The position numbers and the translations under genes are program-made. This document shows, in pieces, positions 45,615 to 55,848 of a stretch of 64,000 bases of DNA (position 1 is its first letter; each line of letters starts with the position of its first letter). The notes below the pieces were generated by a model. The model searched no databases. It saw only the letters and a program-made list of their open reading frames with translations, and was not told the origin of the DNA. The stretch is taken from positions 1 to 64,000 of the forward strand of contig JBIPSI010000002.1 in NCBI GenBank assembly GCA_044070495.1, written 5' to 3'. The DNA comes from Spirulina sp. (GTDB lineage: Bacteria; Cyanobacteriota; Cyanobacteriia; Phormidesmidales; Phormidesmidaceae).

Positions 45615-45890
45615 TTAGCTATTCATCACAGTACTCAGGCGTTTGAGAACTTGGGCTAACAACATCAGAGCCGCATTGCCGACGCTGAGAATTAAAATTC
45701 CCACCACGCCGATCATCCAGTCATCGCGCAACACCGAAATCACTAGGATCATCACCGAAGTCTTGGTGGCAATGCTGGCAAAGGCCAACATTCGCTGCCA
45801 AATGTCTTCATCGCGAAAGGCTTCCACCATGGGGATCAATAGCGCCCCAATCATGGCGATCAGCATGAGGGTCATCGGTTGACTGGTCAT
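45615..45890 (-). CDS. mrpF: Mrp Na+/H+ antiporter subunit F-like
   Basis: 3-TM small protein downstream of and overlapping mrpE. Confidence 0.65.
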   Translation of the reverse strand: MTSQPMTLMLIAMIGALLIPMVEAFRDEDIWQRMLAFASIATKTSVMILVISVLRDDWMIGVVGILILSVGNAALMLLAQVLKRLSTVMNS

Positions 45891-46276
45891 GGGCTGGGCC
45901 TCCGGGTAATACGGTGAACTTCGTACCAGCCCTGCTCTCGGTAGTGCTGGACGATGGTTTTTGGGGTGAAGGTAATCAGAAAAATATCGAGGAAAATTAG
46001 GCTGGGGGATCGCCGAGGTTTGGCCCGTTCCACGGTCACCACTTCATGATTGTGGGGGCGAAACATGATTTCAAAGGCTTCAAAATAGGCTTGGGGAATG
46101 GCCACCACCACTTCCCACAGCGTCCGCAGCCAGTCTTTTAAACGCCCCGGATTGGTGACGCCCCTAGGCAACAGTAGGGCTACGCTCACCCCAATTAAAA
46201 TGTTAGGCCAACTGAAATCTGCTGTCAGCAAAAACCAGATGGTCAAACGCAGCAGAATGTTTAAATATCCCGTCAT
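45887..46276 (-). CDS. mrpE: Mrp Na+/H+ antiporter subunit E
   Basis: IWFLLT..S..NILIG, ITFTPKT motif. Confidence 0.8.
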   Translation of the reverse strand: MTGYLNILLRLTIWFLLTADFSWPNILIGVSVALLLPRGVTNPGRLKDWLRTLWEVVVAIPQAYFEAFEIMFRPHNHEVVTVERAKPRRSPSLIFLDIFLITFTPKTIVQHYREQGWYEVHRITRRPSP

Positions 46277-47706
46277 ACCAATACCATCCCTAATAGTCCT
46301 AAAATTGCTAGCGCCATCATGCCAATCAGATGCTCAAATTCCTCCAGCATACGGGGTAGTTTCACGGTCAATCGACGGATGAGAACCAGGTAGATTAACC
46401 ATCCCAAAAAAATTGTGGCTAGGGGTTTAAGGACGTTATCCCAAGTATAGGCTTCGTAGTACACCACGTTAGCCGCTACTAGCCCACCCAGCAACAGAAC
46501 CATCGCTGGCCAAAAACCAGATTTCACCGCTTGGCTGGGGTCAGCTTTTTGGGGTAAGAAGATGAATTTTGCAAAGGAAATAGATGTGCCTAGGGCCGCT
46601 AGATTCATGGCGATCACCTGCCAGTCTGCCAGGTTTTTCATGGTTAGCACCTTGGCCCCAAACCCTGACAATAACGGGAATCCAGAGATGGAGAAACTGG
46701 CGATCACCAGGGCAATCCAAATGGGGCGGTGAATGGGCTGATCGTGCAGGGCTTTGAAATTTCGGTTGGGCAAATTCCCAGCGCAGAGAAACAGCGCCGC
46801 CTTCACAAAACCGTGGGTGAGAGCATAGAAGCCACCCACCTCTGGAGCCGCCAACACAAACCCCATCTGGGAAATGGTGTGGAAGGCGAGCATTCGTTTG
46901 GTGTCTTTTTCAAACATGGCATAGGCTACCCCTAAAAGGGCCGTAGCCACCCCAAACAGGCGCACCAGCGGGTCAAGTTCCCCTACTAGTAAGGCCATGC
47001 GGGCTAGGGGAAAAACCCCTGCTTTGACCACCACCCCAGACAGCAGCGCCGAAACCGGACTTTCCGATTCGGAATGGGTGAGCGGTAGCCATAGACCCGA
47101 CACAAAAATACCGCCCTTGGTGAGCAGTCCTAATAGAATCAACGCCTGGGCTTCGATGGGAGCATCTGCCAACCCAGTAAACGTAAAGGACTGGCGGGTT
47201 TGGTAGACCAAAATGGCCCCCACCAGGTAAAACAGCATGGCCGTGTTGCTAACAAATAGATAGCGCAGAGCGACCCATAGGGTTTTGTCGCTGCGGGGGT
47301 AGGCAATCAGCAAAAAGGCAGCAACGCCAATCACCTCTAGAGCCACATAGAGACTAATTAAATCAGCACAGATAAAAGCCGCATTAACACTACCGTGCAA
47401 AATGATGGTCTGAGTGTAGAAAAACGATGGCTTCCCGCTGGGCCAACAGTAGAGAATTACTGCCGCCGTTACGAGGGCATTAGTCAAAATAAAAAAGGCG
47501 CTGAGGTCATCCACTAAAAGCGTGACACCAAAGCTATCGAGTAAATGGAGTTCGAGGGGGAAGGATTGAAGAAAAATCCCCCCGGCATAGGCGAGGGAAA
47601 CCAGGGTGACGCCAAAGGCCAAAAATCGGGCAGCCTGGGGCAATAGATAAATGCTAAAGCCGATAAAAAACGGCAGCGTGACCCACAGCAAGGAGCTTAG
47701 CGCCAT
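46273..47706 (-). CDS. mrpD: Mrp antiporter subunit D-like (copy 2)
   Basis: SLYVALEV, WLPLTH, PVSALLSGVVVK, KRMLAFHTISQ, LTHGFVKA. Confidence 0.85.
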   Translation of the reverse strand: MALSSLLWVTLPFFIGFSIYLLPQAARFLAFGVTLVSLAYAGGIFLQSFPLELHLLDSFGVTLLVDDLSAFFILTNALVTAAVILYCWPSGKPSFFYTQTIILHGSVNAAFICADLISLYVALEVIGVAAFLLIAYPRSDKTLWVALRYLFVSNTAMLFYLVGAILVYQTRQSFTFTGLADAPIEAQALILLGLLTKGGIFVSGLWLPLTHSESESPVSALLSGVVVKAGVFPLARMALLVGELDPLVRLFGVATALLGVAYAMFEKDTKRMLAFHTISQMGFVLAAPEVGGFYALTHGFVKAALFLCAGNLPNRNFKALHDQPIHRPIWIALVIASFSISGFPLLSGFGAKVLTMKNLADWQVIAMNLAALGTSISFAKFIFLPQKADPSQAVKSGFWPAMVLLLGGLVAANVVYYEAYTWDNVLKPLATIFLGWLIYLVLIRRLTVKLPRMLEEFEHLIGMMALAILGLLGMVLV

Positions 47707-47773: not shown

Positions 47774-49225
47774 TTACCACGACCATGACCAAACCATCCA
47801 AAATACGAAAACCAACATCACGCTCATGCCACCAATGAGATTTTCAAAGTTTTCCATCACCCTGGGGATTGTCAACGGCGTTGTTCGTATCCATTGCCCC
47901 CAGACTAGCCAGCCCGCACCAATTACCCCCAAGGCTTTGAGAACATTAAACCAGGTGAGTGTTTGCGGCAGGTAGGCCAAATTTAGGCCCACTAAAGCCG
48001 TCAGCAGCAGCAACAGTGACACCCCTAATCCAGGATTTTTGACGAAGGCCTGGAAGTCATGGCGACGGTGGGGGAGAAAGATAAATTTAGCGTAGAGAAT
48101 TGCGGTTCCCACGGCAGCGAGATTGAGTACCCAACTTTGCCAGGGCAAAACCGCCTTGAGCGTCAACATTTTGGTGCTAAAGCCAAGGAATAAGGGAAAC
48201 CCTGAAATCGAGAGACTAGCTAGGGTAATGGGGAGCCAAAGCTGAGTGTCGATGGGATTTTGGCGCAGGGTGGGCAGGTCGCGGCTGGGCAAGTTACCCA
48301 CTCCAAGGAAGAGGGCCGCTTTACCGAGGCCATGGGCCAAGGCGTAGGGGCCAGCCACACTGGGGGCGACTAACACCCAGCCCAACTGCGAGAGGGTGCT
48401 ACAGGCCAGAACGCGCTTGGTATCGCGGTCAAAGAGGGCATAAAGTACCCCCAGCAGAGCCGCAGCCATGCCAAATAATCTGACGAGGGGAAGTAACTCC
48501 TCCATCATCAAGGCACAGCGCACCAGGGGAAATACCCCCGCCTTGACGACCACCCCAGACAACAGGGCCGATACCGGGCTTTCCGATTCCGCGTGGGTGA
48601 GGGGGAGCCACAACCCCGACACAAAAATCCCCCCTTTGGCCAGCAGCCCCACCACAATTAAAACCAGCGCTTCAAGGGGAGCATTGAGCAGCCCAGAAAA
48701 GGCAAAGGACTGGTTGGATTGGTAGACCAAAATGGCTCCTACCAAGTAGAACAACATGGCCGTATTACTGATAAATAGGTAGCGCAGAGCCACCCATAGG
48801 GTGCGGTCTTGGCGAGGGTAGGCCACCAAAAGGAAGGCGGCAATTCCAATCACCTCCAGGGCCACGTATAGGCTAATGAAATCAGCACAGATAAAGGCCG
48901 AGTTGAGACTGCCGTGGAGAATGATGGCCTGGGTGTAGAAAAATGAGGTTTTTGGGGTGCGCCAACAGTAGAGAATGACCGCCGCCGTTACGAGGGTATT
49001 CGTCAGAATAAAAAAGGCGCTGAGATTGTCAATGAGAAGAATAACCCCAAAGCTATCCAACAGATTTAAATTAAGGGAAGCCGGATGCAGAAACACCCCT
49101 AGGGTGTAGGCCAAGGAGACCAGCGTTACCCCCAAGGCTAGGACGCGGTCAGCCTTGGGCAAGAGATAAATACTAAACCCAGCCAACAGGGGCAGGGTAA
49201 TCCAGATAACGGTAAATATTGTCAT
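47774..49225 (-). CDS. mrpD: Mrp antiporter subunit D-like (copy 1)
   Basis: Paralog of 46273-47706; SLYVALEV, WLPLTHAE, KRVLACSTLSQ. Confidence 0.85.
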   Translation of the reverse strand: MTIFTVIWITLPLLAGFSIYLLPKADRVLALGVTLVSLAYTLGVFLHPASLNLNLLDSFGVILLIDNLSAFFILTNTLVTAAVILYCWRTPKTSFFYTQAIILHGSLNSAFICADFISLYVALEVIGIAAFLLVAYPRQDRTLWVALRYLFISNTAMLFYLVGAILVYQSNQSFAFSGLLNAPLEALVLIVVGLLAKGGIFVSGLWLPLTHAESESPVSALLSGVVVKAGVFPLVRCALMMEELLPLVRLFGMAAALLGVLYALFDRDTKRVLACSTLSQLGWVLVAPSVAGPYALAHGLGKAALFLGVGNLPSRDLPTLRQNPIDTQLWLPITLASLSISGFPLFLGFSTKMLTLKAVLPWQSWVLNLAAVGTAILYAKFIFLPHRRHDFQAFVKNPGLGVSLLLLLTALVGLNLAYLPQTLTWFNVLKALGVIGAGWLVWGQWIRTTPLTIPRVMENFENLIGGMSVMLVFVFWMVWSWSW

Positions 49226-49578
49226 GGCTCATACCCCTTTTCGATGACGCGAGTTTCTAGGGTGGGGTTATCCCTGGCTAATTTCATCACCCCTACCAGC
49301 ATCAAGGCCTGAATCGAAAAGCCGATGACAATGGCCGTTAAAATTACCGCCTGGGGTACAGGGTCAGCATAGGAGGACTTAGGCGTTTCGGTGAGAATGG
49401 GGGTGTACACTCCGGTTCTAGCCGCCACCAGAACAAACAGCGCAACAACTCCAGTACTCATCACATCCATGGCGATAATTTTCATCACCAGATTTTCCTT
49501 GAAGATAATGCCCAAAAAGCCCATCAAAATCGTGGCATAGACGCAGGCATAAAGTATGGTATCTCCCCCTAGCTGCAT
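49222..49578 (-). CDS. mrpC: Mrp antiporter subunit C
   Basis: NLVMKIIA, DPVPQAVILTAIVIG. Confidence 0.9.
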   Translation of the reverse strand: MQLGGDTILYACVYATILMGFLGIIFKENLVMKIIAMDVMSTGVVALFVLVAARTGVYTPILTETPKSSYADPVPQAVILTAIVIGFSIQALMLVGVMKLARDNPTLETRVIEKGYEP

Positions 49579-49636: not shown

Positions 49637-50710
49637 TTAAGATTGTGTAACGAGCCAGGTTAACCCCGTGGCCATAACAATAATTTGTAAACTCAGCAAA
49701 AGCCAATCAGCCCACATCACCCGCCTTGTCCAAACCTCCTCATTTTTATCGACCCAGTAGGCGGTAACAATCACCTCGACAATGGAGGCAAAAATCAGGA
49801 TGTAGGCAATCACGTAGATTTCATCCATCAGCACGAGATAGCCTAAGTCGGGGAGGGCATCTGCATAGGTTTCTTGCAGAAAAACGGTGGTGAGTAGGGC
49901 TGTCACTGGCAGCGCCACCCGTGAATCAATATGCTGGGGTGCGAGCAACAGAGCGGCACAGCTTGAGGCCAATACAATCAACAGCGGCAACAACAATTTC
50001 CAAGTAAAGAAGCTCCAGGGGCGGGCAATATTGAGGGAATAGCGCAGCACCGAATGTTCTGACCGACTCGGCAAACGGGGATCGCCAAAGTTGGTGTCGT
50101 AGGTTCTCACCAGGCTATCGATGGTGGAGCCTACAATTGACCAGCCGGGGATGGTTAAAAACTGGGAATAGCCCGATGCCTCGTCATCCGCGACATAGAT
50201 AAGTTGATCTGTGGTGTAGGCCGAGTTCTCCATAAAAATGCTGAGGTTGTACTGATCGAGGGGATAGCGTTTGAGGTCAAAGGATTGGAGGAAGCGCCCT
50301 TCTACCCGTGAGATTTGGTAAAAACTGCCATCGGGCAACCGTTCTGGCTCAGGGTGGGCGGGGACAGACATCATCGACCAATCGCTAATGCTGTTGGTGA
50401 CTTCTAAATAGGTGATTGGGTCAATATCTCCTTGCCACTTAAACCACATATAGAAATCGGCATAAAAAGAATTGCTTTTGAGATCGATATCGTAAATGCT
50501 GACGGCAAAAATTCCGGTTTCTACCCGCTCGACTTGGGTGGATAGGGAGACGGGCTGCCTCGGAGAAGCTGGGGGCAAAAATGACCACTGACCTAGGCTA
50601 ATTTTGAGGCTGATGAGGAGGATTCCTACACCCAAAAGCAATAGCATAGACAGAGCCTTTGGAAAGTTCTCTGTGACTTCAGTCCACCGCCGAAATGGAA
50701 ACAGATGCAT
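49637..50710 (-). CDS. Pentameric ligand-gated ion channel subunit (GLIC/ELIC-like), paralog 2
   Basis: IYDID..NSFYADFYMW, Pro-loop RYPLD, PGW, IAR, M1 KLLLP, M2 DSRVALPVTALLT, LPDLGYL, four C-terminal TMs. Confidence 0.85.
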   Translation of the reverse strand: MHLFPFRRWTEVTENFPKALSMLLLLGVGILLISLKISLGQWSFLPPASPRQPVSLSTQVERVETGIFAVSIYDIDLKSNSFYADFYMWFKWQGDIDPITYLEVTNSISDWSMMSVPAHPEPERLPDGSFYQISRVEGRFLQSFDLKRYPLDQYNLSIFMENSAYTTDQLIYVADDEASGYSQFLTIPGWSIVGSTIDSLVRTYDTNFGDPRLPSRSEHSVLRYSLNIARPWSFFTWKLLLPLLIVLASSCAALLLAPQHIDSRVALPVTALLTTVFLQETYADALPDLGYLVLMDEIYVIAYILIFASIVEVIVTAYWVDKNEEVWTRRVMWADWLLLSLQIIVMATGLTWLVTQS

Positions 50711-50880
50711 CGCCAACGTCCAGCAAAGATGGAGTCAGTTTAGCGCTTCTATCCCCTTCACTCTATCCCTTTTCCCAAGACGGTTATCGCTCATACATAG
50801 GGCTGAGGGGAGATCCCAGGGTTCTTACTGGCAATCGGTTAAGGAACCTGTCCAGCGGTGACAGAACCCTGGGATCTAAG

Positions 50881-52290
50881 TTATGAGGCAGGGTCGGCCT
50901 TGGCGGCAACGGCATCTTCCTCGGAGCCTTTGAAGGCGATACGGAGGAAGGGTGGGGCCAGGAAGGTGGTGGCAATCACCATGATGATGATGGCCGCTTC
51001 CAGGGGCTTGGACAGCACGCCGCTGGCGGAACCGATGCCCGCAAATACCAGGCCCACCTCACCACGGGGCACCATGCCGATGCCGATGGCCAGTTTATTG
51101 AGTTGGGCTTGGCCGAAGGTGGTCCAGCCCGTGATCACCTTGCCCAGAATGGCGACGGCCAGCAGGAAGACCGCAATCACCAGGCCTTCGCGGTTGGCGG
51201 GAACGGCGGGGTTGAGCACACCCAGGTCGGCCTTGGCCCCCACGGTGACGAAGAAAATCGGCACCAGGATGTCGGCGATGGGCATCACTTGGCGATCCAG
51301 TTCCTTGCGCTTGTCGGTTTCATCCAGCACTAGGCCAGCGGCGAAGGCTCCCAGAATGGCCTCCAGGTGAATGACGTTGGCCAAGAAAGCCATCAAAAAG
51401 GCGAAGGTGAGGGCGGGGATGACCAGGTTGCCGCGCGTTTGCAGTTTGTCGGCAATGGCGACGAAGGAACTGTTGAAGAATTTACCCAGGAAGATGGCCC
51501 CCAGCAGGAACCCGGTGGCGCTGACGATCAGGTAGATGACGTTCATCACGTCTACCTCGCCCGTTTTGGCTAAGCTAGCGACCACAGCCAGGACAATGAT
51601 GCCCAACACGTCGTCAATCACCGCCGCACCAACGATGATTTGCCCTTCGGCGGATTTAAGCTGGCCAATTTCCGACAGCACCTTGGAGGTAATGCCGATA
51701 CTGGTGGCGGTCAATGCGGCCCCGGCAAAGATAGCGGGAATGGTGGGCACATGGAACAGGGTCATCAGCCCTACGGTGCCCAGGGCAAAGGGGGCGGCCA
51801 CACCGACAACGGCCACAATCGCCGCCTGGTAGCCCACTTTTTGCAGTTCGCGCAGGTCGGATTCTAGGCCGATCTCAAACAATAGGATGATGACGCCCAG
51901 TTCTGCCAGCACCGAAACCACTTCGCTCTGGCTGTGGAAGACCTCGGTGACCGCTTCGGGGGACAATCCACCCAGCCATTGCAGCAGGTGCATCAGTTGA
52001 GAATCCGCCGCCATCGCCCCGCTTTCGGGGAAAACAATCAGGTTCAGGGCGGAGGTACCCACAATCACCCCGGCCACCAATTCCCCCAGCACCGGGGGCA
52101 GGTCTACCAGGCGAGACAGTTCGCCCCCCAGTTTGCTGGCGATGTAGATCACCACCAGGCTGAGCAGAACCCCAGCTAGGACAAGCGGCCCAACTTCGGC
52201 ATCCACTTCAGGAGCCGCCGCCAGCAGTCCCCAGGATGCGGCGGCCTCTAGCCCCCTCGAAATCATCGTCACACCATTCAAATCAACCAT
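50881..52290 (-). CDS. nhaS3: Na+/H+ antiporter NhaS3 (CPA2)
   Basis: LPPVLGEL, LFEIGLES, ATSIGIT, AVIDDVLG, GMVPRGEVGL; GAGG RBS before ATG 52290. Confidence 0.85.
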   Translation of the reverse strand: MVDLNGVTMISRGLEAAASWGLLAAAPEVDAEVGPLVLAGVLLSLVVIYIASKLGGELSRLVDLPPVLGELVAGVIVGTSALNLIVFPESGAMAADSQLMHLLQWLGGLSPEAVTEVFHSQSEVVSVLAELGVIILLFEIGLESDLRELQKVGYQAAIVAVVGVAAPFALGTVGLMTLFHVPTIPAIFAGAALTATSIGITSKVLSEIGQLKSAEGQIIVGAAVIDDVLGIIVLAVVASLAKTGEVDVMNVIYLIVSATGFLLGAIFLGKFFNSSFVAIADKLQTRGNLVIPALTFAFLMAFLANVIHLEAILGAFAAGLVLDETDKRKELDRQVMPIADILVPIFFVTVGAKADLGVLNPAVPANREGLVIAVFLLAVAILGKVITGWTTFGQAQLNKLAIGIGMVPRGEVGLVFAGIGSASGVLSKPLEAAIIIMVIATTFLAPPFLRIAFKGSEEDAVAAKADPAS

Positions 52291-52377
52291 AGATACCTCT
52301 ATCGAATCTCCGTCAAATCTCTGGCAAATCTGTATCAAATCCGCGTTAGGGCGACCGTGGCCCATCGCCCCAGGATA

Positions 52378-53451
52378 TTAGCTCCATAAAATCAACCCTA
52401 TGGCCCCCAAGAAAATCGCCACAATTTGCCCAATCAGGAGCCAGCGATCCACCTTGATCACTTGGTGATACCGTTCCGGTTTCCCTTCCTTAATCCAGTC
52501 GGCAGTGAGAATCGCCTCGGCGATGGAAAGAAAGATCAAAACGTAGGCGATCACGTAGATCTTATCCATCAAGACCAGGTAGCCAATATCGGGCAGACTT
52601 GAGGAATAGGACTCCTGCAAAAATACCGTGGTCAGCAGGGCGGTGACGGGGAGGGCAATGCGAGAATCGCTGTATTCAGGATTGAGCAGCAGCGATCCCC
52701 AACTGGAGGCCACCACGATCACTAGGGGCAACAGCAACTTCCAAAGAAAGAAGCTGGGGGGTCGAGCAATTTGAAGGGAATACTTGAGAATCGAATGCTG
52801 GGCTCCATCGCCTAGGCGAGTATCTCCAAAGTTAGTGCTGTATTCGCGCAGCAGCGTCTCCAGTTTAAACCCCATAATGCGCCAGCCAGGAATCGCCAAG
52901 GTCTCGGAGTAGCCCGACTGATCGGGTTCTGCCACGTAGACTAAATCATCGATGGTGTAGGCAGAGTTTTCCAAGATAAGGCTTAAATAATGGCGATCCA
53001 AAGGGTATCGAGCCAGGGAAAGGGGCTGCACAAAACGGCCCTCAACCCGCCAAATTTGGTATTGACGATTATCCTCTAAAATTTCAGGCTCCTCATAGGT
53101 CGGCGTGATCACCATGCCCCAATCATCCACCCCATTGGAAAACTCCAACTGAGCGAGGGGATCAATGTCCCCCTGCCACTTAAACCAGGCATAAAAATCG
53201 GCGTAGTAGGTATTGCTGGATGGATCTAAATCGTAGACATTCATCGCAAACAATCCGGTTTCAACAATTGCAGATTGGCTCGGTACCGTGGTCAGGGGTT
53301 GGAAGACATGGTAGAGATCCACCCCGTCCTCCGATTGTCGTAATCCCAGTTGGAGTAGAACCGTAACTAGAGCAACGCTTAGGGCGGCGAAGACAAAGGT
53401 ACGGGCTTTGTGCCGTCTACTCCAAGGCAAAAGTTGGTGAAGAAAATGCAT
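52378..53451 (-). CDS. Pentameric ligand-gated ion channel subunit (GLIC/ELIC-like), paralog 1
   Basis: VYDLD..NTYYADFYAW, RYPLD, PGW, IAR, KLLLP, DSRIALPVTALLT, LPDIGYL, four C-terminal TMs. Confidence 0.85.
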   Translation of the reverse strand: MHFLHQLLPWSRRHKARTFVFAALSVALVTVLLQLGLRQSEDGVDLYHVFQPLTTVPSQSAIVETGLFAMNVYDLDPSSNTYYADFYAWFKWQGDIDPLAQLEFSNGVDDWGMVITPTYEEPEILEDNRQYQIWRVEGRFVQPLSLARYPLDRHYLSLILENSAYTIDDLVYVAEPDQSGYSETLAIPGWRIMGFKLETLLREYSTNFGDTRLGDGAQHSILKYSLQIARPPSFFLWKLLLPLVIVVASSWGSLLLNPEYSDSRIALPVTALLTTVFLQESYSSSLPDIGYLVLMDKIYVIAYVLIFLSIAEAILTADWIKEGKPERYHQVIKVDRWLLIGQIVAIFLGAIGLILWS

Positions 53452-53491
53452 GGTCTAGGGGGCGTAACAGGGCCATTCGGCAGGGGTAGAG

Positions 53492-53589
53492 GTAGGGTGG
53501 CAGTGCCCACCCTAAGGTTCCTAGGAAATATACCCCCGCCATCGGCCCATCCTACTGCCCCGGAGGTAGGGTGGCAGTGCCCACCCTAC
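53492..53589. repeat. Two copies of the palindrome GTAGGGTGGCAGTGCCCACCCTAM
   Basis: 53492-53515 and 53566-53589, between bicA and the pLGIC gene. Confidence 0.75.
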
Positions 53590-53593
53590 GGAG

Positions 53594-55297
53594 CTAGAGC
53601 ATGCGGGGCACTTCCGATCCGGCGGTATCACCGGAGTAGTCGATGCCGTCGATGGCCGCGAGGACTTTGAGGGAGGCCTTCAGGGCTTCGGCGCGGGTTT
53701 GGACGAGGTGTTTGGCGGGGACAAACCGCAGCACACCTAGTTTTTCTAGGCGTTTCAGGGTTTTGCCCTTCGCGCCAACCAGGAACACCTGCCGTCCGGC
53801 GTCCGCCGCATCTTGGATGGCGTTTTCTAGGGCCAGGGCCGCTGTCACGCCCAGGTGGGGCACGTCTTGCAAGTCCACAATCAGCACATCGTGGTCTTCC
53901 ATGGCGGTATGTTCTTGGGAAATGGCCCGTGCCACGCCGAAGATCATGGGGCCATCCAGGTGGAAGAGCAGAATCCGGCCCTTAGCCCGATCCATGAGGG
54001 CGCTTTCTTCGTCGTTGAGGGGAAAGTCGCCGTCGAAGTCGGTGATGGTTTTTACGCCCTCTGATTGCAGGCTGCTGAGGCGGTCGATGGTGAGCATGTT
54101 GGCGATGAACACGCCCACCCCCACGGCCACAATCAAGTCCACAAACACGGTCAGGAACATCACCCCGTACATAATGGCGGTGCCCTTCCAGGACACATGG
54201 TGCGCCCGCTTCAGGAAGCTCCAGTCCAAAATATCGAAGCCGACCTTGACGGCAATCCCCGCTAGCACCGCCAGGGGAATCACCTTGGTGAGCGGAGCCG
54301 CCCAGAGAACGACCACCAGCAGAATCGCCGCCCGAATCAGACCCGACAGCGCCGTGCGGCCCCCGGCCTGGATGTTGACCACCGTCCCCATGGTGGCCCC
54401 AGCACCGGGCATCCCGCCAAACAGACCGGACATCAGGTTGCCGATCCCTTGGCCAATCAGTTCTTTGTTGGGGTCGCTTTGGGTGCGGGTAATGCTGTCG
54501 GCAATCATCGCCGTCAGCAGGGCATCAATACAGCCCAACATCCCCAGCACCAAGCCATCCACCAGCATCACCCGCAGTTGGTCGGCGCTGAACATGGGCA
54601 GTTGCAGCGTCGGCAATCCGGTGGGAATTTCCCCAATCAGGCGCAGATCGGCATTGGCAAACACCGTCAGGGCCAGAATCGTCCCGGCCACCAGCACCAA
54701 CAACTGAGGCGGTACCCAGCGCTTTAACTGCTTCGGCATCAGGAACAGCACCGCCAGGGAGAACACCCCCAGGGCCACCTCCGCCGGATCGAGGGTGCTG
54801 ATTAGCGTCGGCAAACTGGTGAGGGTGCCGACCACGCCGCCCTTGGGAGTGGCATGGCCCAAAAATGGCCCCAGTTGCAGGATAATTAGAATCACCCCAA
54901 TGCCCGACATAAACCCAGAAATCACCGGGTAGGGCATGAGGGTAACGTAGCGCCCCAGCTTGAGAAATCCAAAGATAATCTGGAAAAAACCCGCCAGCAT
55001 GGCGACCGTAAAGGCCATGGCCATACCATTTTCGGGATTGGCCGCCACCAGTTGAGCGATCACAGCGGTAAACACCACCGTCATCGGCCCCGTAGGTTCA
55101 GAAATTAGCGTGGGTGTGCCCCCAAACAACGCCGCAAAAAAGCCCACGATCACAGCCCCATAGAGACCGGATGCAGGCCCAGCCCCAGAGGCCACCCCAA
55201 AGGCCAGGGCCATCGGTAGCGCAATCACCGCTGCGGTGACGCCCCCAAACAAGTCACCCCGCCAGTGGCGGAAGCTAATTCGATTTGTGATGCCCAT
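53594..55297 (-). CDS. bicA: SulP-family Na+-dependent bicarbonate transporter BicA
   Basis: GDLFGGVTAAVIALPMALAFG, ISEPTGPMT, CIDALLT, GAGATMGTV, STAS domain; linked to nhaS3/mrp. Confidence 0.9.
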   Translation of the reverse strand: MGITNRISFRHWRGDLFGGVTAAVIALPMALAFGVASGAGPASGLYGAVIVGFFAALFGGTPTLISEPTGPMTVVFTAVIAQLVAANPENGMAMAFTVAMLAGFFQIIFGFLKLGRYVTLMPYPVISGFMSGIGVILIILQLGPFLGHATPKGGVVGTLTSLPTLISTLDPAEVALGVFSLAVLFLMPKQLKRWVPPQLLVLVAGTILALTVFANADLRLIGEIPTGLPTLQLPMFSADQLRVMLVDGLVLGMLGCIDALLTAMIADSITRTQSDPNKELIGQGIGNLMSGLFGGMPGAGATMGTVVNIQAGGRTALSGLIRAAILLVVVLWAAPLTKVIPLAVLAGIAVKVGFDILDWSFLKRAHHVSWKGTAIMYGVMFLTVFVDLIVAVGVGVFIANMLTIDRLSSLQSEGVKTITDFDGDFPLNDEESALMDRAKGRILLFHLDGPMIFGVARAISQEHTAMEDHDVLIVDLQDVPHLGVTAALALENAIQDAADAGRQVFLVGAKGKTLKRLEKLGVLRFVPAKHLVQTRAEALKASLKVLAAIDGIDYSGDTAGSEVPRML

Positions 55298-55349
55298 CGC
55301 CAGCACCTAAATCCTTTTATTGAAGTTAATAAATGTTGAAAACTTTTGC

Positions 55350-55452: not shown

Positions 55453-55848
55453 CTAATCGCGCTGTTCGAGGTGCTGGCGGATAGCCTTAAGCTCCTCCAG
55501 AATTTGCCGCAACAGGTCGGTGGTGACGGTTTCTGTGGCGGGCTGCACCTGAATCACGGGCTGAAGCCCCAGTACTTCCTCAGCAAAGCGGCGCACCTCC
55601 TGGGGCCGAAACACCAAGGGTTCGTCCTTATTCTGGCGTAGTTCGGGGTTGAGTTTTCTGGGATCGTAGGGCGGGTTGAGGAGGTCGGGGTCGGTGTTGG
55701 CGTAGCGGTAGACCGAGGCCCGCGAGCGGTTGAGATAGCGCTGCACGTCGTCAATGGTCAACCCCGACTCTGGGGTCGGGAAGGTAGCCCCTAAGCTGGG
55801 CTTGGTAACGTTGGACAATTCGCTGGGGGAAAAATCGGGGAAACTCAT
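55453..55848 (-). CDS. Conserved cyanobacterial HTH DNA-binding protein (often labelled 'resolvase')
   Basis: LTIDDVQRYLNRSRASVYRY excisionase/AlpA-like HTH; no serine-recombinase catalytic domain. Confidence 0.65.
   Translation of the reverse strand: MSFPDFSPSELSNVTKPSLGATFPTPESGLTIDDVQRYLNRSRASVYRYANTDPDLLNPPYDPRKLNPELRQNKDEPLVFRPQEVRRFAEEVLGLQPVIQVQPATETVTTDLLRQILEELKAIRQHLEQRD

Follow-up and report, generated by a model that had tools for sequence, protein, structure and literature searches.

Introduction

To our knowledge, GLIC and ELIC, two bacterial pentameric ligand-gated ion channels (hereafter pLGICs), serve as workhorses of structural pharmacology, and we know of no cellular role established for bacterial pLGICs. 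GLIC is acid-gated, and we know of no report that places it in a transporter operon. A separate line of work concerns the transporters in the CO2-concentrating mechanism (CCM) of cyanobacteria. The respective sources describe bicA-nhaS3 as a CO2-responsive operon in Microcystis (PMC4419860), assign the mnh/mrp operon of Synechocystis to the NdhR regulon (PMC4390856), and state that Na+ exporters, among them NhaS and Mrp, are required by the bicarbonate transporter BicA (PMC13249358). Here we analyse a 64,000-nucleotide stretch of DNA from Spirulina sp. (GenBank assembly GCA_044070495.1, contig JBIPSI010000002.1, positions 1 to 64,000), called the window below, in which two genes for pLGIC homologues, pLGIC-1 and pLGIC-2, lie within a cluster of bicA, nhaS3 and mrp genes.

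Literature searches turned up no report that connects a pLGIC with bicA, nhaS3, mrp or the CCM, and a term search of Jaiteh et al. 2016 (PMC4795631) hit neither 'operon' nor 'heteromer'. The superfamily itself is known and the subfamily is uncharacterised; the new element is the placement and retention of pLGIC genes inside a CCM/Na+-cycle operon.

Results

Two divergent members of the Pro-loop channel superfamily

Both 357-residue proteins are genuine Pro-loop pLGIC homologues, of an uncharacterised subfamily centred on cyanobacteria. For pLGIC-1 (P0002), phmmer searches of the PDB gave 1.1e-17 with a GLIC-GABAAR chimera and about 6e-12 with GLIC and with ELIC. pLGIC-2 (P0001) matched the chimera at 4.4e-19 and GLIC at about 2e-15 over residues 55-323, with residues 58-322 covered by the chimera match. 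A profile of 67 family sequences matched the chimera at 2.7e-32, and GLIC and ELIC over the full length at about 1e-24 to 1e-25. The AlphaFold2 (AF2) model of pLGIC-1 (pLDDT 88.1, pTM 0.81) has strands in residues 50-229, followed by helices at 232-255, 261-283, 294-320 and 325-356. When this model was compared with the PDB by Foldseek, GLIC came first (E 3.7e-22, TM-score 0.79-0.80), then GABA-A, glycine and GluCl receptors, and ranks 1-50 among the matches listed were all pLGICs. The fold model was made for pLGIC-1, and the fold of pLGIC-2 was judged by the identity between the two proteins, 57% over 304 residues. The pLGIC fold assumed in a preliminary description of the locus is thus borne out by the PDB matches, the AF2 model and the Foldseek ranking.

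The residues expected of the superfamily are in place. Both proteins carry the Pro-loop RYPLD (P150, D152), the pre-M1 arginine R230, the M1 proline P242 and the M2-M3 proline P287; P150, R230, P242 and P287 are invariant and D152 is nearly invariant in the 67 family sequences. Both also have LLLPL in M1, LPDIGY or LPDLGY in the M2-M3 loop, and four C-terminal helices, so that every hallmark first listed for them (Pro-loop YPLD, M1 proline, LPxxGY loop, four transmembrane helices, about 357 residues) is present in each. Since a flanking Cys pair is missing, they are of the bacterial Pro-loop type. Matches to the Pfam models proposed as a check were seen at scores below the curated cutoffs: 21.1 and 19 bits for Neur_chan_memb (cutoff 28.1) and 18.3 for Neur_chan_LBD (cutoff 26). 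The NCBIfam models LIC (62-75 bits, cutoff 280) and LGIC_1 (36-60, cutoff 500) behaved in the same way, and neither protein reached a curated Pfam or NCBIfam cutoff for pLGICs. Such scores explain why most database relatives are labelled hypothetical, and they place the two channels in a divergent subfamily.

Divergence has not eroded the conserved core. At the 96 columns conserved in at least 85% of the other 65 sequences, pLGIC-1 keeps 92 residues and pLGIC-2 keeps 89; because nearly all are kept, both paralogs look functional. Strongly conserved positions in the extracellular domain (ECD), for example E161-N162-S163, W190 and Y204...F208-G209, suggest a cue recognised family-wide.

Both channel genes lie in a BicA, antiporter and Mrp cluster

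Open reading frame (ORF) listing combined with Pfam and NCBIfam scans gave a cluster of nine minus-strand genes in the order bicA, pLGIC-1, nhaS3 (a CPA2 Na+/H+ antiporter), pLGIC-2, mrpC, two mrpD genes and two small ORFs (Table 1). This confirms the order proposed earlier from bicA to the second mrpD, and with it the claim that both channel genes are embedded, on one strand, in a genuine cluster of BicA, Na+/H+ antiporter and Mrp genes. The bicA product has the SulP plus STAS architecture and scored 932.3 bits against the BicA equivalog (NCBIfam BicarbTportBicA, NF050096; cutoff 880). The nhaS3 product scored 182 bits against TIGR00932 (CPA2), under its cutoff of 238.

The mrp part was first read as mrpC-D-D-E-F. 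Subunits C, D and D were recognised by NCBIfam, whereas the 129- and 91-residue ORFs matched no Pfam or NCBIfam family even at E<=1, and the names mrpE and mrpF therefore rest on position. A full Mrp set A-G was not found at the locus; the rest of the genome was not searched for mrpA, mrpB and mrpG. About 145 nt separate the last ORF of the cluster from a convergent plus-strand gene (ORF end 45470), and no additional minus-strand ORF of at least 40 residues starts in that gap.

Two gene starts were revised. pLGIC-2 probably begins at ATG 50710, the start used by its four orthologues, giving 357 residues, and nhaS3 probably begins at ATG 52290, where a preceding GAGG aligns with the ribosome-binding site of relatives. 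The spacers from bicA to mrpC are then 142, 87, 170 and 58 nt. The short gaps reported at first hold in this corrected form of 58-170 nt; the 12-nt gap between pLGIC-1 and nhaS3 arose because the nhaS3 ORF had been over-extended. Scanned for promoter and terminator consensus sequences, the spacers between these genes showed no terminator-like site, a result of little weight because the counts lay below the shuffled expectation.

pLGIC-2 is retained under purifying selection in one subclade

The window's genome (G000; 5.31 Mb in 74 contigs) has exactly two pLGIC genes, both in this cluster. When 121 genomes of the same family-level group were scanned, 11 had a pLGIC match, among them 7 of the 23 other genomes of the genus, which is apparently Nodosilinea. 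Two distinct copies occurred in the window's genome only. G001 was considered as a second two-copy genome and rejected: its extra matches are fragments of 90-95% identity located where contigs end, and they probably reflect strain variation within a metagenome-assembled genome.

A cluster with a single channel gene, in the order ClC / HTH-bicA-nhaS3-pLGIC-mrpC, was found in four relatives: G099, G105, G065 and the Nodosilinea sp. contig L027 (the G065 contig ends within or just after the pLGIC gene, and that of L027 starts within the helix-turn-helix (HTH) ORF). In these four, bicA is 97% identical, nothing lies between bicA and nhaS3, and the single channel is the pLGIC-2 orthologue, 76-87% identical and in the same position. 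Of the 22 further loci with a bicA orthologue in the genus, we also compared 12, chosen for their longer contigs. Six have bicA-nhaS3-mrpC-D(-D)-E-F without a pLGIC, one has bicA-mrpCDEF and five have bicA alone; the spacers of the clusters without a pLGIC contain no pLGIC remnant. By this comparison the transporter cluster is older, and pLGIC-2 is a subclade-specific addition, inserted between nhaS3 and mrpC in one small subclade formed by the window's genome and the four relatives.

Pairwise Nei-Gojobori estimates of dN/dS were 0.08-0.12 for pLGIC-2 versus about 0.05 for bicA and nhaS3. On these values pLGIC-2 is a constrained gene under purifying selection, though one that evolves faster than bicA and nhaS3. 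Synonymous divergence varies from gene to gene between positions 45615 and 55306 of the window. In identical genome pairs (loci L098, L099, L100 and L027), dS was 0.34-0.48 in bicA and nhaS3 as opposed to 0.6-1.9 in pLGIC-2, mrpC and mrpD2; the single mrpD1 pair (G000-G105) gave 0.38, and mrpD identities spread over 62-95%. Such unevenness points to a recombination mosaic with breakpoints inside the operon.

The genes flanking bicA follow the same subclade. The ClC-CBS-Usp gene stands at the same position in G099, G105 and G065 at 95-96% identity, and the HTH-like ORF is 77-81% identical in those three and 89% over the partial L027 match. Neither gave a tblastn match in the 12 genus regions, including about 3 kb upstream of bicA. 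As both flanking genes were seen in the pLGIC-2 subclade and not in those regions, the subclade seems to have assembled an ion-homeostasis island.

pLGIC-1 lies on a segment private to the window's genome

Collinearity in blastn comparisons breaks at 52228 and 53565 against G099 and G065, and at the bicA stop against G105 and L027, which delimits the segment that carries pLGIC-1 (Table 1). The segment keeps a ribosome-binding site and an in-frame start for nhaS3. Two identical copies of a palindromic hairpin stand at its bicA end, one outside and one inside, and at up to two mismatches the 5.3-Mb genome holds three copies only. In several genomes of the genus, palindromes of the TAGGGTGGGCA...TGCCCACC type follow bicA or nhaS3, and hairpin variants are found in the nhaS3-mrpC spacer of the relatives L145-L147 and L153. 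The palindrome may be a REP-like (repetitive extragenic palindromic) element that marks recombination-prone spacers. At the other end of the segment, the first ~120 nt of nhaS3 (the start and about 35 codons) are hypervariable in the five cluster-bearing genomes, with 25-62% identity between relatives; the remainder of nhaS3 is about 90% identical among the five (window region 52228-52290).

To look for the donor of pLGIC-1, the segment was compared by blastn, together with its flanks, with every locus retrieved; the hits were confined to pLGIC coding sequence, at about 65-74% identity, and a sliding-window comparison detected no recombination tract extending into bicA or nhaS3. In a maximum-likelihood (ML) tree of 35 sequences, pLGIC-1 grouped with P0003, a metagenomic protein 77% identical to it, and the two were sister to the pLGIC-2 clade (ultrafast bootstrap 96, SH-aLRT 90). 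pLGIC-1 and pLGIC-2 are therefore each other's nearest sampled lineages. The stem of the pLGIC-2 clade is long (0.89), and a quick tree of 97 rows agrees. pLGIC-1 may be an old duplicate retained here and lost elsewhere, or a re-import from a P0003-like relative.

Four public sequencing runs were compared with the window. The DNA runs X1 and X3 matched it at about 93-100% identity and the RNA libraries X18 and X19 mostly at 85-95%, so the runs appear to hold related strains and not this one. All four cover bicA and nhaS3, and X1, X3 and X19 cover parts of pLGIC-2 (the X19 match is 413 nt long and 86% alike). One X19 contig joins 52191 to 53603, a bicA-nhaS3 junction without pLGIC-1, and contigs diverge into unlike sequence at 52200 (X1 and X3) and at 53603 (X1). 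No contig of the four runs lies over 52201-53602, an absence of cover that carries no weight as evidence in related strains. The run contigs fit a pLGIC-1 that is private to the window's genome. Coverage by X18 and X19 hints weakly at transcription of the cluster in relatives; a single transcript cannot be proved from contigs, and depth cannot rank genes.

A privately held segment raises the question of an assembly chimera, in which pLGIC-1 would not really stand between bicA and nhaS3. No other genome or run examined has the segment at that place, the four runs have no contig over 52201-53602 and diverge at the junctions, and a 26-nt repeat is present at the upstream junction. However, the segment is interior to a 265,944-bp contig, no repeat of a length that would allow a k-mer misjoin is present at the downstream junction, and an in-frame nhaS3 start with a ribosome-binding site is kept. 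In addition, the 77%-identical P0003 exists elsewhere, and the runs come from related strains rather than the source sample. We consider a chimera highly improbable.

Table 1. Positions of the cluster genes, their upstream neighbours and the inserted segment, in window coordinates
Feature	Position	Strand	Evidence or remark
ClC chloride channel/antiporter with CBS pair and two Usp domains, 899 aa	55951..58650	+	Pfam Voltage_CLC 5.7e-94, CBS, Usp; divergent from cluster
131-aa ORF adjoining bicA upstream	55453..55848	-	weak, sub-cutoff match to Pfam HTH_17 (E 2.9e-4)
bicA, Na+-dependent bicarbonate transporter, SulP + STAS	53594..55306	-	Pfam Sulfate_transp 1.7e-100, STAS
Palindromic hairpin copy 1, 22 nt, just after bicA stop	53567..53588	-	variants in G099 and G065; 0 matches in 100 shuffles
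1338-bp segment carrying pLGIC-1	52228..53565		window's genome only; stands for ~164 bp of G099 bicA-nhaS3 spacer
Palindromic hairpin copy 2, identical, inside segment, 41 nt upstream of pLGIC-1 start	53493..53514	-	
pLGIC-1 (P0002), 357 aa, Pro-loop pentameric ligand-gated channel homologue	52378..53451	-	PDB phmmer, AF2, Foldseek
nhaS3-like CPA2 Na+/H+ antiporter	50881..52290	-	Pfam Na_H_Exchanger 1.2e-67; longest ORF to 52365
pLGIC-2 (P0001 from ATG 50710), 357 aa, paralog of pLGIC-1	49637..50710	-	PDB phmmer; longest ORF to 50716
mrpC	49222..49578	-	NCBIfam NF005620 equivalog 180.6 bits, cutoff 91
mrpD-like antiporter subunit	47774..49225	-	NF005564 704.6 bits, cutoff 439; Pfam Proton_antipo_M
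Second mrpD-like antiporter subunit	46273..47706	-	NF005564 807.3 bits, cutoff 439
129-aa ORF in mrpE position	45887..46276	-	relatives' clusters keep it at 76-96%
91-aa hydrophobic ORF in mrpF position	45615..45890	-	relatives' clusters keep it at 78-91%

The paralogs probably conduct cations and need not assemble together

The M2 helix was examined for residues linked to ion selectivity. In the HMMER alignment with GABA-A alpha1, D-S-R occupies positions -2'/-1'/0', T stands at 6' and L at 9'; counted by position, Phe is at 13' and Glu at 16'. The acidic residue at -2' is conserved across the family. Cation channels, including GLIC, have an acidic residue at -1' or -2', and anion channels have Pro-Ala. 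The ring of Asp at M2 -2' thus predicts cation conduction, and both channels are probably cation-selective.

The preliminary description had gone further and proposed that near-identical pores combined with diverged extracellular domains would let pLGIC-1 and pLGIC-2 co-assemble, as animal Cys-loop receptors do, into a mixed channel serving the Na+ cycle. Some observations agree with a heteropentamer. The two are each other's closest sampled lineages, their genes share a strand at a distance of 1.6 kb, the genome has no other pLGIC, and the long stem of the pLGIC-2 clade (0.89) could mark specialisation after duplication. The membrane helices are also alike, with identities of 71% in M1, 75% in the M2 region and 70% in M3. 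However, the contrast between pore and extracellular domain was not found: the ECD is 56% identical and the transmembrane domain (TMD) 58%, hence equally diverged, and the 75% of M2 is close to the mean of 73% between pLGIC-1 and the 65 other family members. Likeness in M2 is a property of the whole family, so the pore argument does not single out this pair.

The distribution of the genes speaks against the heteropentamer more directly. Both genes occur together in one of the five cluster-bearing genomes and in one of the 121 scanned, whereas pLGIC-2 is found without pLGIC-1, under purifying selection, in the other four cluster-bearing genomes. Being alone and conserved there, pLGIC-2 must work alone, which excludes an obligate heteromer for it; for pLGIC-1 an obligate heteromer is unlikely. 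Optional co-assembly in this one genome is possible at most. We found no positive evidence for the heteropentamer and regard it as quite improbable.

Genomic context weighs for and against a role in the Na+ cycle

The explanation that we tentatively prefer, at somewhat less than an even chance, is that the pLGICs are homopentameric channels, specific to this lineage and probably selective for cations, which a Na+/HCO3-/pH operon has recruited, perhaps as a gated path for Na+ re-entry. A link to the operon is suggested by the common strand, the gaps of 58-170 nt, and the fact that the only two pLGIC genes of the genome are both here.

Several results count against this explanation. We confirmed 206 family loci in 185,579 species genomes and examined the best 80 of them, which come from cyanobacteria, Bacteroidota, Verrucomicrobiota, Chloroflexota, Pseudomonadota and other phyla. 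By tblastn of 11 window proteins, 79 of the 80 had no bicA, nhaS3 or mrp nearby, the exception being L027, the close relative described above; none of nine metagenome loci was linked to bicA, nhaS3 or mrp either. Clustering of 647 neighbouring ORFs gave no family common to more than 7 of the 80 loci, and the families that several loci do share have unrelated functions (sensor kinases, ClpB, tRNA ligase). Among the 69 of 142 immediate neighbours that were scanned (loci L001-L040 without L027) there was no SulP and no Na_H_Exchanger protein, and the sole PF00361 protein was of NdhD type, from Planktothrix. G069 has a bicA-mrp cluster and a pLGIC gene on different contigs. Furthermore, both insertion sites are spacers that carry hairpins and may simply tolerate insertions, and a cation channel, when open, would run down the Na+ gradient established by the operon, so that tight gating would be needed.

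The channel family as a whole is thus not linked to carbon uptake, and a role at this locus, if real, would be a local co-option. The co-conservation with bicA, nhaS3 and mrp foreseen earlier holds for pLGIC-2 in four relatives of one subclade. It does not hold for pLGIC-1, for the 79 unlinked loci of the 80, or for the 6 of 12 regions in which the cluster has no pLGIC.

The same context suits a different explanation, that the two genes are passengers: stand-alone chemosensory or ion channels without a tie to carbon uptake, which landed once or twice in permissive hairpin spacers. The family has no constant genomic context and its neighbours are heterogeneous and unrelated in function. Within the genus its occurrence is patchy (7 of 23 other genomes, some of them without a BicA match at E<=1e-100), and other species of the genus have a cluster that works with no pLGIC. 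The higher dS of pLGIC-2 and the mrp part (0.6-1.9) than of bicA and nhaS3 (0.34-0.48), the signature of a recombination mosaic, fits as well. Chance landing accounts less readily for the position of both copies, in operon orientation, in a single nine-gene cluster of a 5.3-Mb genome, and for the retention of pLGIC-2 in one slot in five genomes over a dS of up to 1.8 at a dN/dS of about 0.1. The surrounding genes, moreover, all encode ion transporters, the ClC-CBS-Usp protein included. We rate the passenger explanation as rather unlikely.

Individual family loci showed neighbours worth recording. In Planktothrix (L018 11845-18206) the pLGIC gene lies beside convergent ndhD- and ndhF-type genes and an MscS-family channel gene. 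These ndhD/ndhF genes were considered as a second link to the CCM and rejected: they are convergent, and no ORF of at least 100 residues, hence no CupA-sized gene, lies between them and the pLGIC gene. In Microcoleus (L004 8934-9575 and L005 8968-10116) the ORF directly downstream of the pLGIC gene encodes an EF-hand Ca2+-binding protein, and that of L005 additionally carries a stretch resembling a urea transporter.

Regulatory motifs and other neighbours of the cluster

The NdhR/CcmR motif ATAG-N8-CTAT had 0 matches in the window. Just upstream of bicA, both the window (55335-55345, minus strand) and G099 have the motif AAGTTTTCAAC. The 10-nt core of this motif, AGTTTTCAAC, stands just upstream of nhaS3 in three relatives (L099 12196, L100 5458, L027 2233), and in the window's genome the nhaS3-proximal copy of the core is replaced by the pLGIC-1 segment. 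The motif is a lead to a possible operator, its single match in the window being at chance level (49 of 100 shuffles). The 131-residue ORF upstream of bicA had no match in the NCBIfam scan. A second SulP/BicA-like gene of the same genome, outside the window (G000:C22:59804-61393), encodes a protein 58% identical to the BicA of the cluster, and the same second copy is present in several relatives.

Discussion

If the pLGICs were indeed recruited into the operon as homopentameric channels, their action could be pictured as follows. Each would assemble as a separate homopentamer in the cytoplasmic membrane, its beta-sandwich domain lying in the periplasm, and each would be transcribed with the operon. 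BicA imports HCO3- together with Na+, and NhaS-type and Mrp antiporters export Na+ against H+ (PMC13249358). A pLGIC would serve as a gated inlet for Na+ (or Na+/K+) that opens in response to a cue in the periplasm, for example pH or a small ligand. Under high external pH or scarce HCO3-, the inlet could supply the antiporters with Na+ for H+ uptake; alternatively, it could trim the membrane potential during heavy HCO3- flux. A gated inlet of this kind would tune the Na+ cycle, the cytoplasmic pH and the membrane potential.

A more ambitious version makes a pLGIC gated by pH or a ligand a functional component of the Na+ cycle of the CCM, a regulated inlet that balances BicA, NhaS3 and Mrp, and holds that in this one genome it could co-assemble with a second, recently acquired paralog. 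We think this quite improbable. If true, it would be the first natural bacterial heteromeric pLGIC and the first defined physiological role for bacterial pLGICs.

The distribution is narrow, five genomes of one subclade, and the proposed function is inferred only. Even so, a pLGIC subfamily retained by selection in an operon of well-understood task, Na+-coupled bicarbonate uptake with Na+/H+ antiport, offers a concrete, testable physiological hypothesis for bacterial pLGICs, and genomes of the same genus with zero, one or two channel genes in the cluster form a natural comparison set. The locus is also relevant to the way cyanobacteria keep Na+, charge and pH in balance while taking up bicarbonate.

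Among characterised channels, the proton-gated GLIC of Gloeobacter violaceus is the closest in kind: like both channels described here it is a cyanobacterial Pro-loop receptor, with a mature length of about 310 residues, and like them it has an acidic residue at M2 -2' (E-2'). GLIC is the best structural match to pLGIC-1 (E 3.7e-22, TM-score 0.79), yet identity in the structural alignment is 18-19%, and in M2 and the M2-M3 loop the two channels look more like GABA-A or glycine receptors. ELIC and sTeLIC are bacterial homopentameric pLGICs gated by amines and by alkaline pH, respectively. ELIC is matched by the family profile at about 1e-24 to 1e-25, but neither channel has a close sequence relation to the family. 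sTeLIC was not among the best 60 PDB matches of each search; as it is described as alkaline-gated (bioRxiv 10.64898/2026.01.07.698087), gating of that kind exists in the superfamily.

The operon has its own counterparts. In the bicA-nhaS3 and mrp/mnh operons of the CCM, BicA, a CPA2 antiporter and Mrp subunits are clustered, as they are here. The descriptions of Microcystis bicA-nhaS3 and Synechocystis mnh, in their accessible portions, mention no channel gene (PMC4419860, PMC4390856). Upstream of bicA the present locus has a small HTH-like ORF without a LysR-family match in Pfam or NCBIfam.

For the proposed function, the nearest counterpart comes from alkaliphilic Bacillus, where, according to PMC4225499, the voltage-gated Na+ channels NaVBP/NsvBa supply Na+ to Na+/H+ antiporters at high pH. 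These channels are voltage-gated and belong to an unrelated protein family, so the likeness to the pLGIC proposal is functional only. By analogy, we infer that the pLGICs of this cluster could provide a comparable route of Na+ re-entry.

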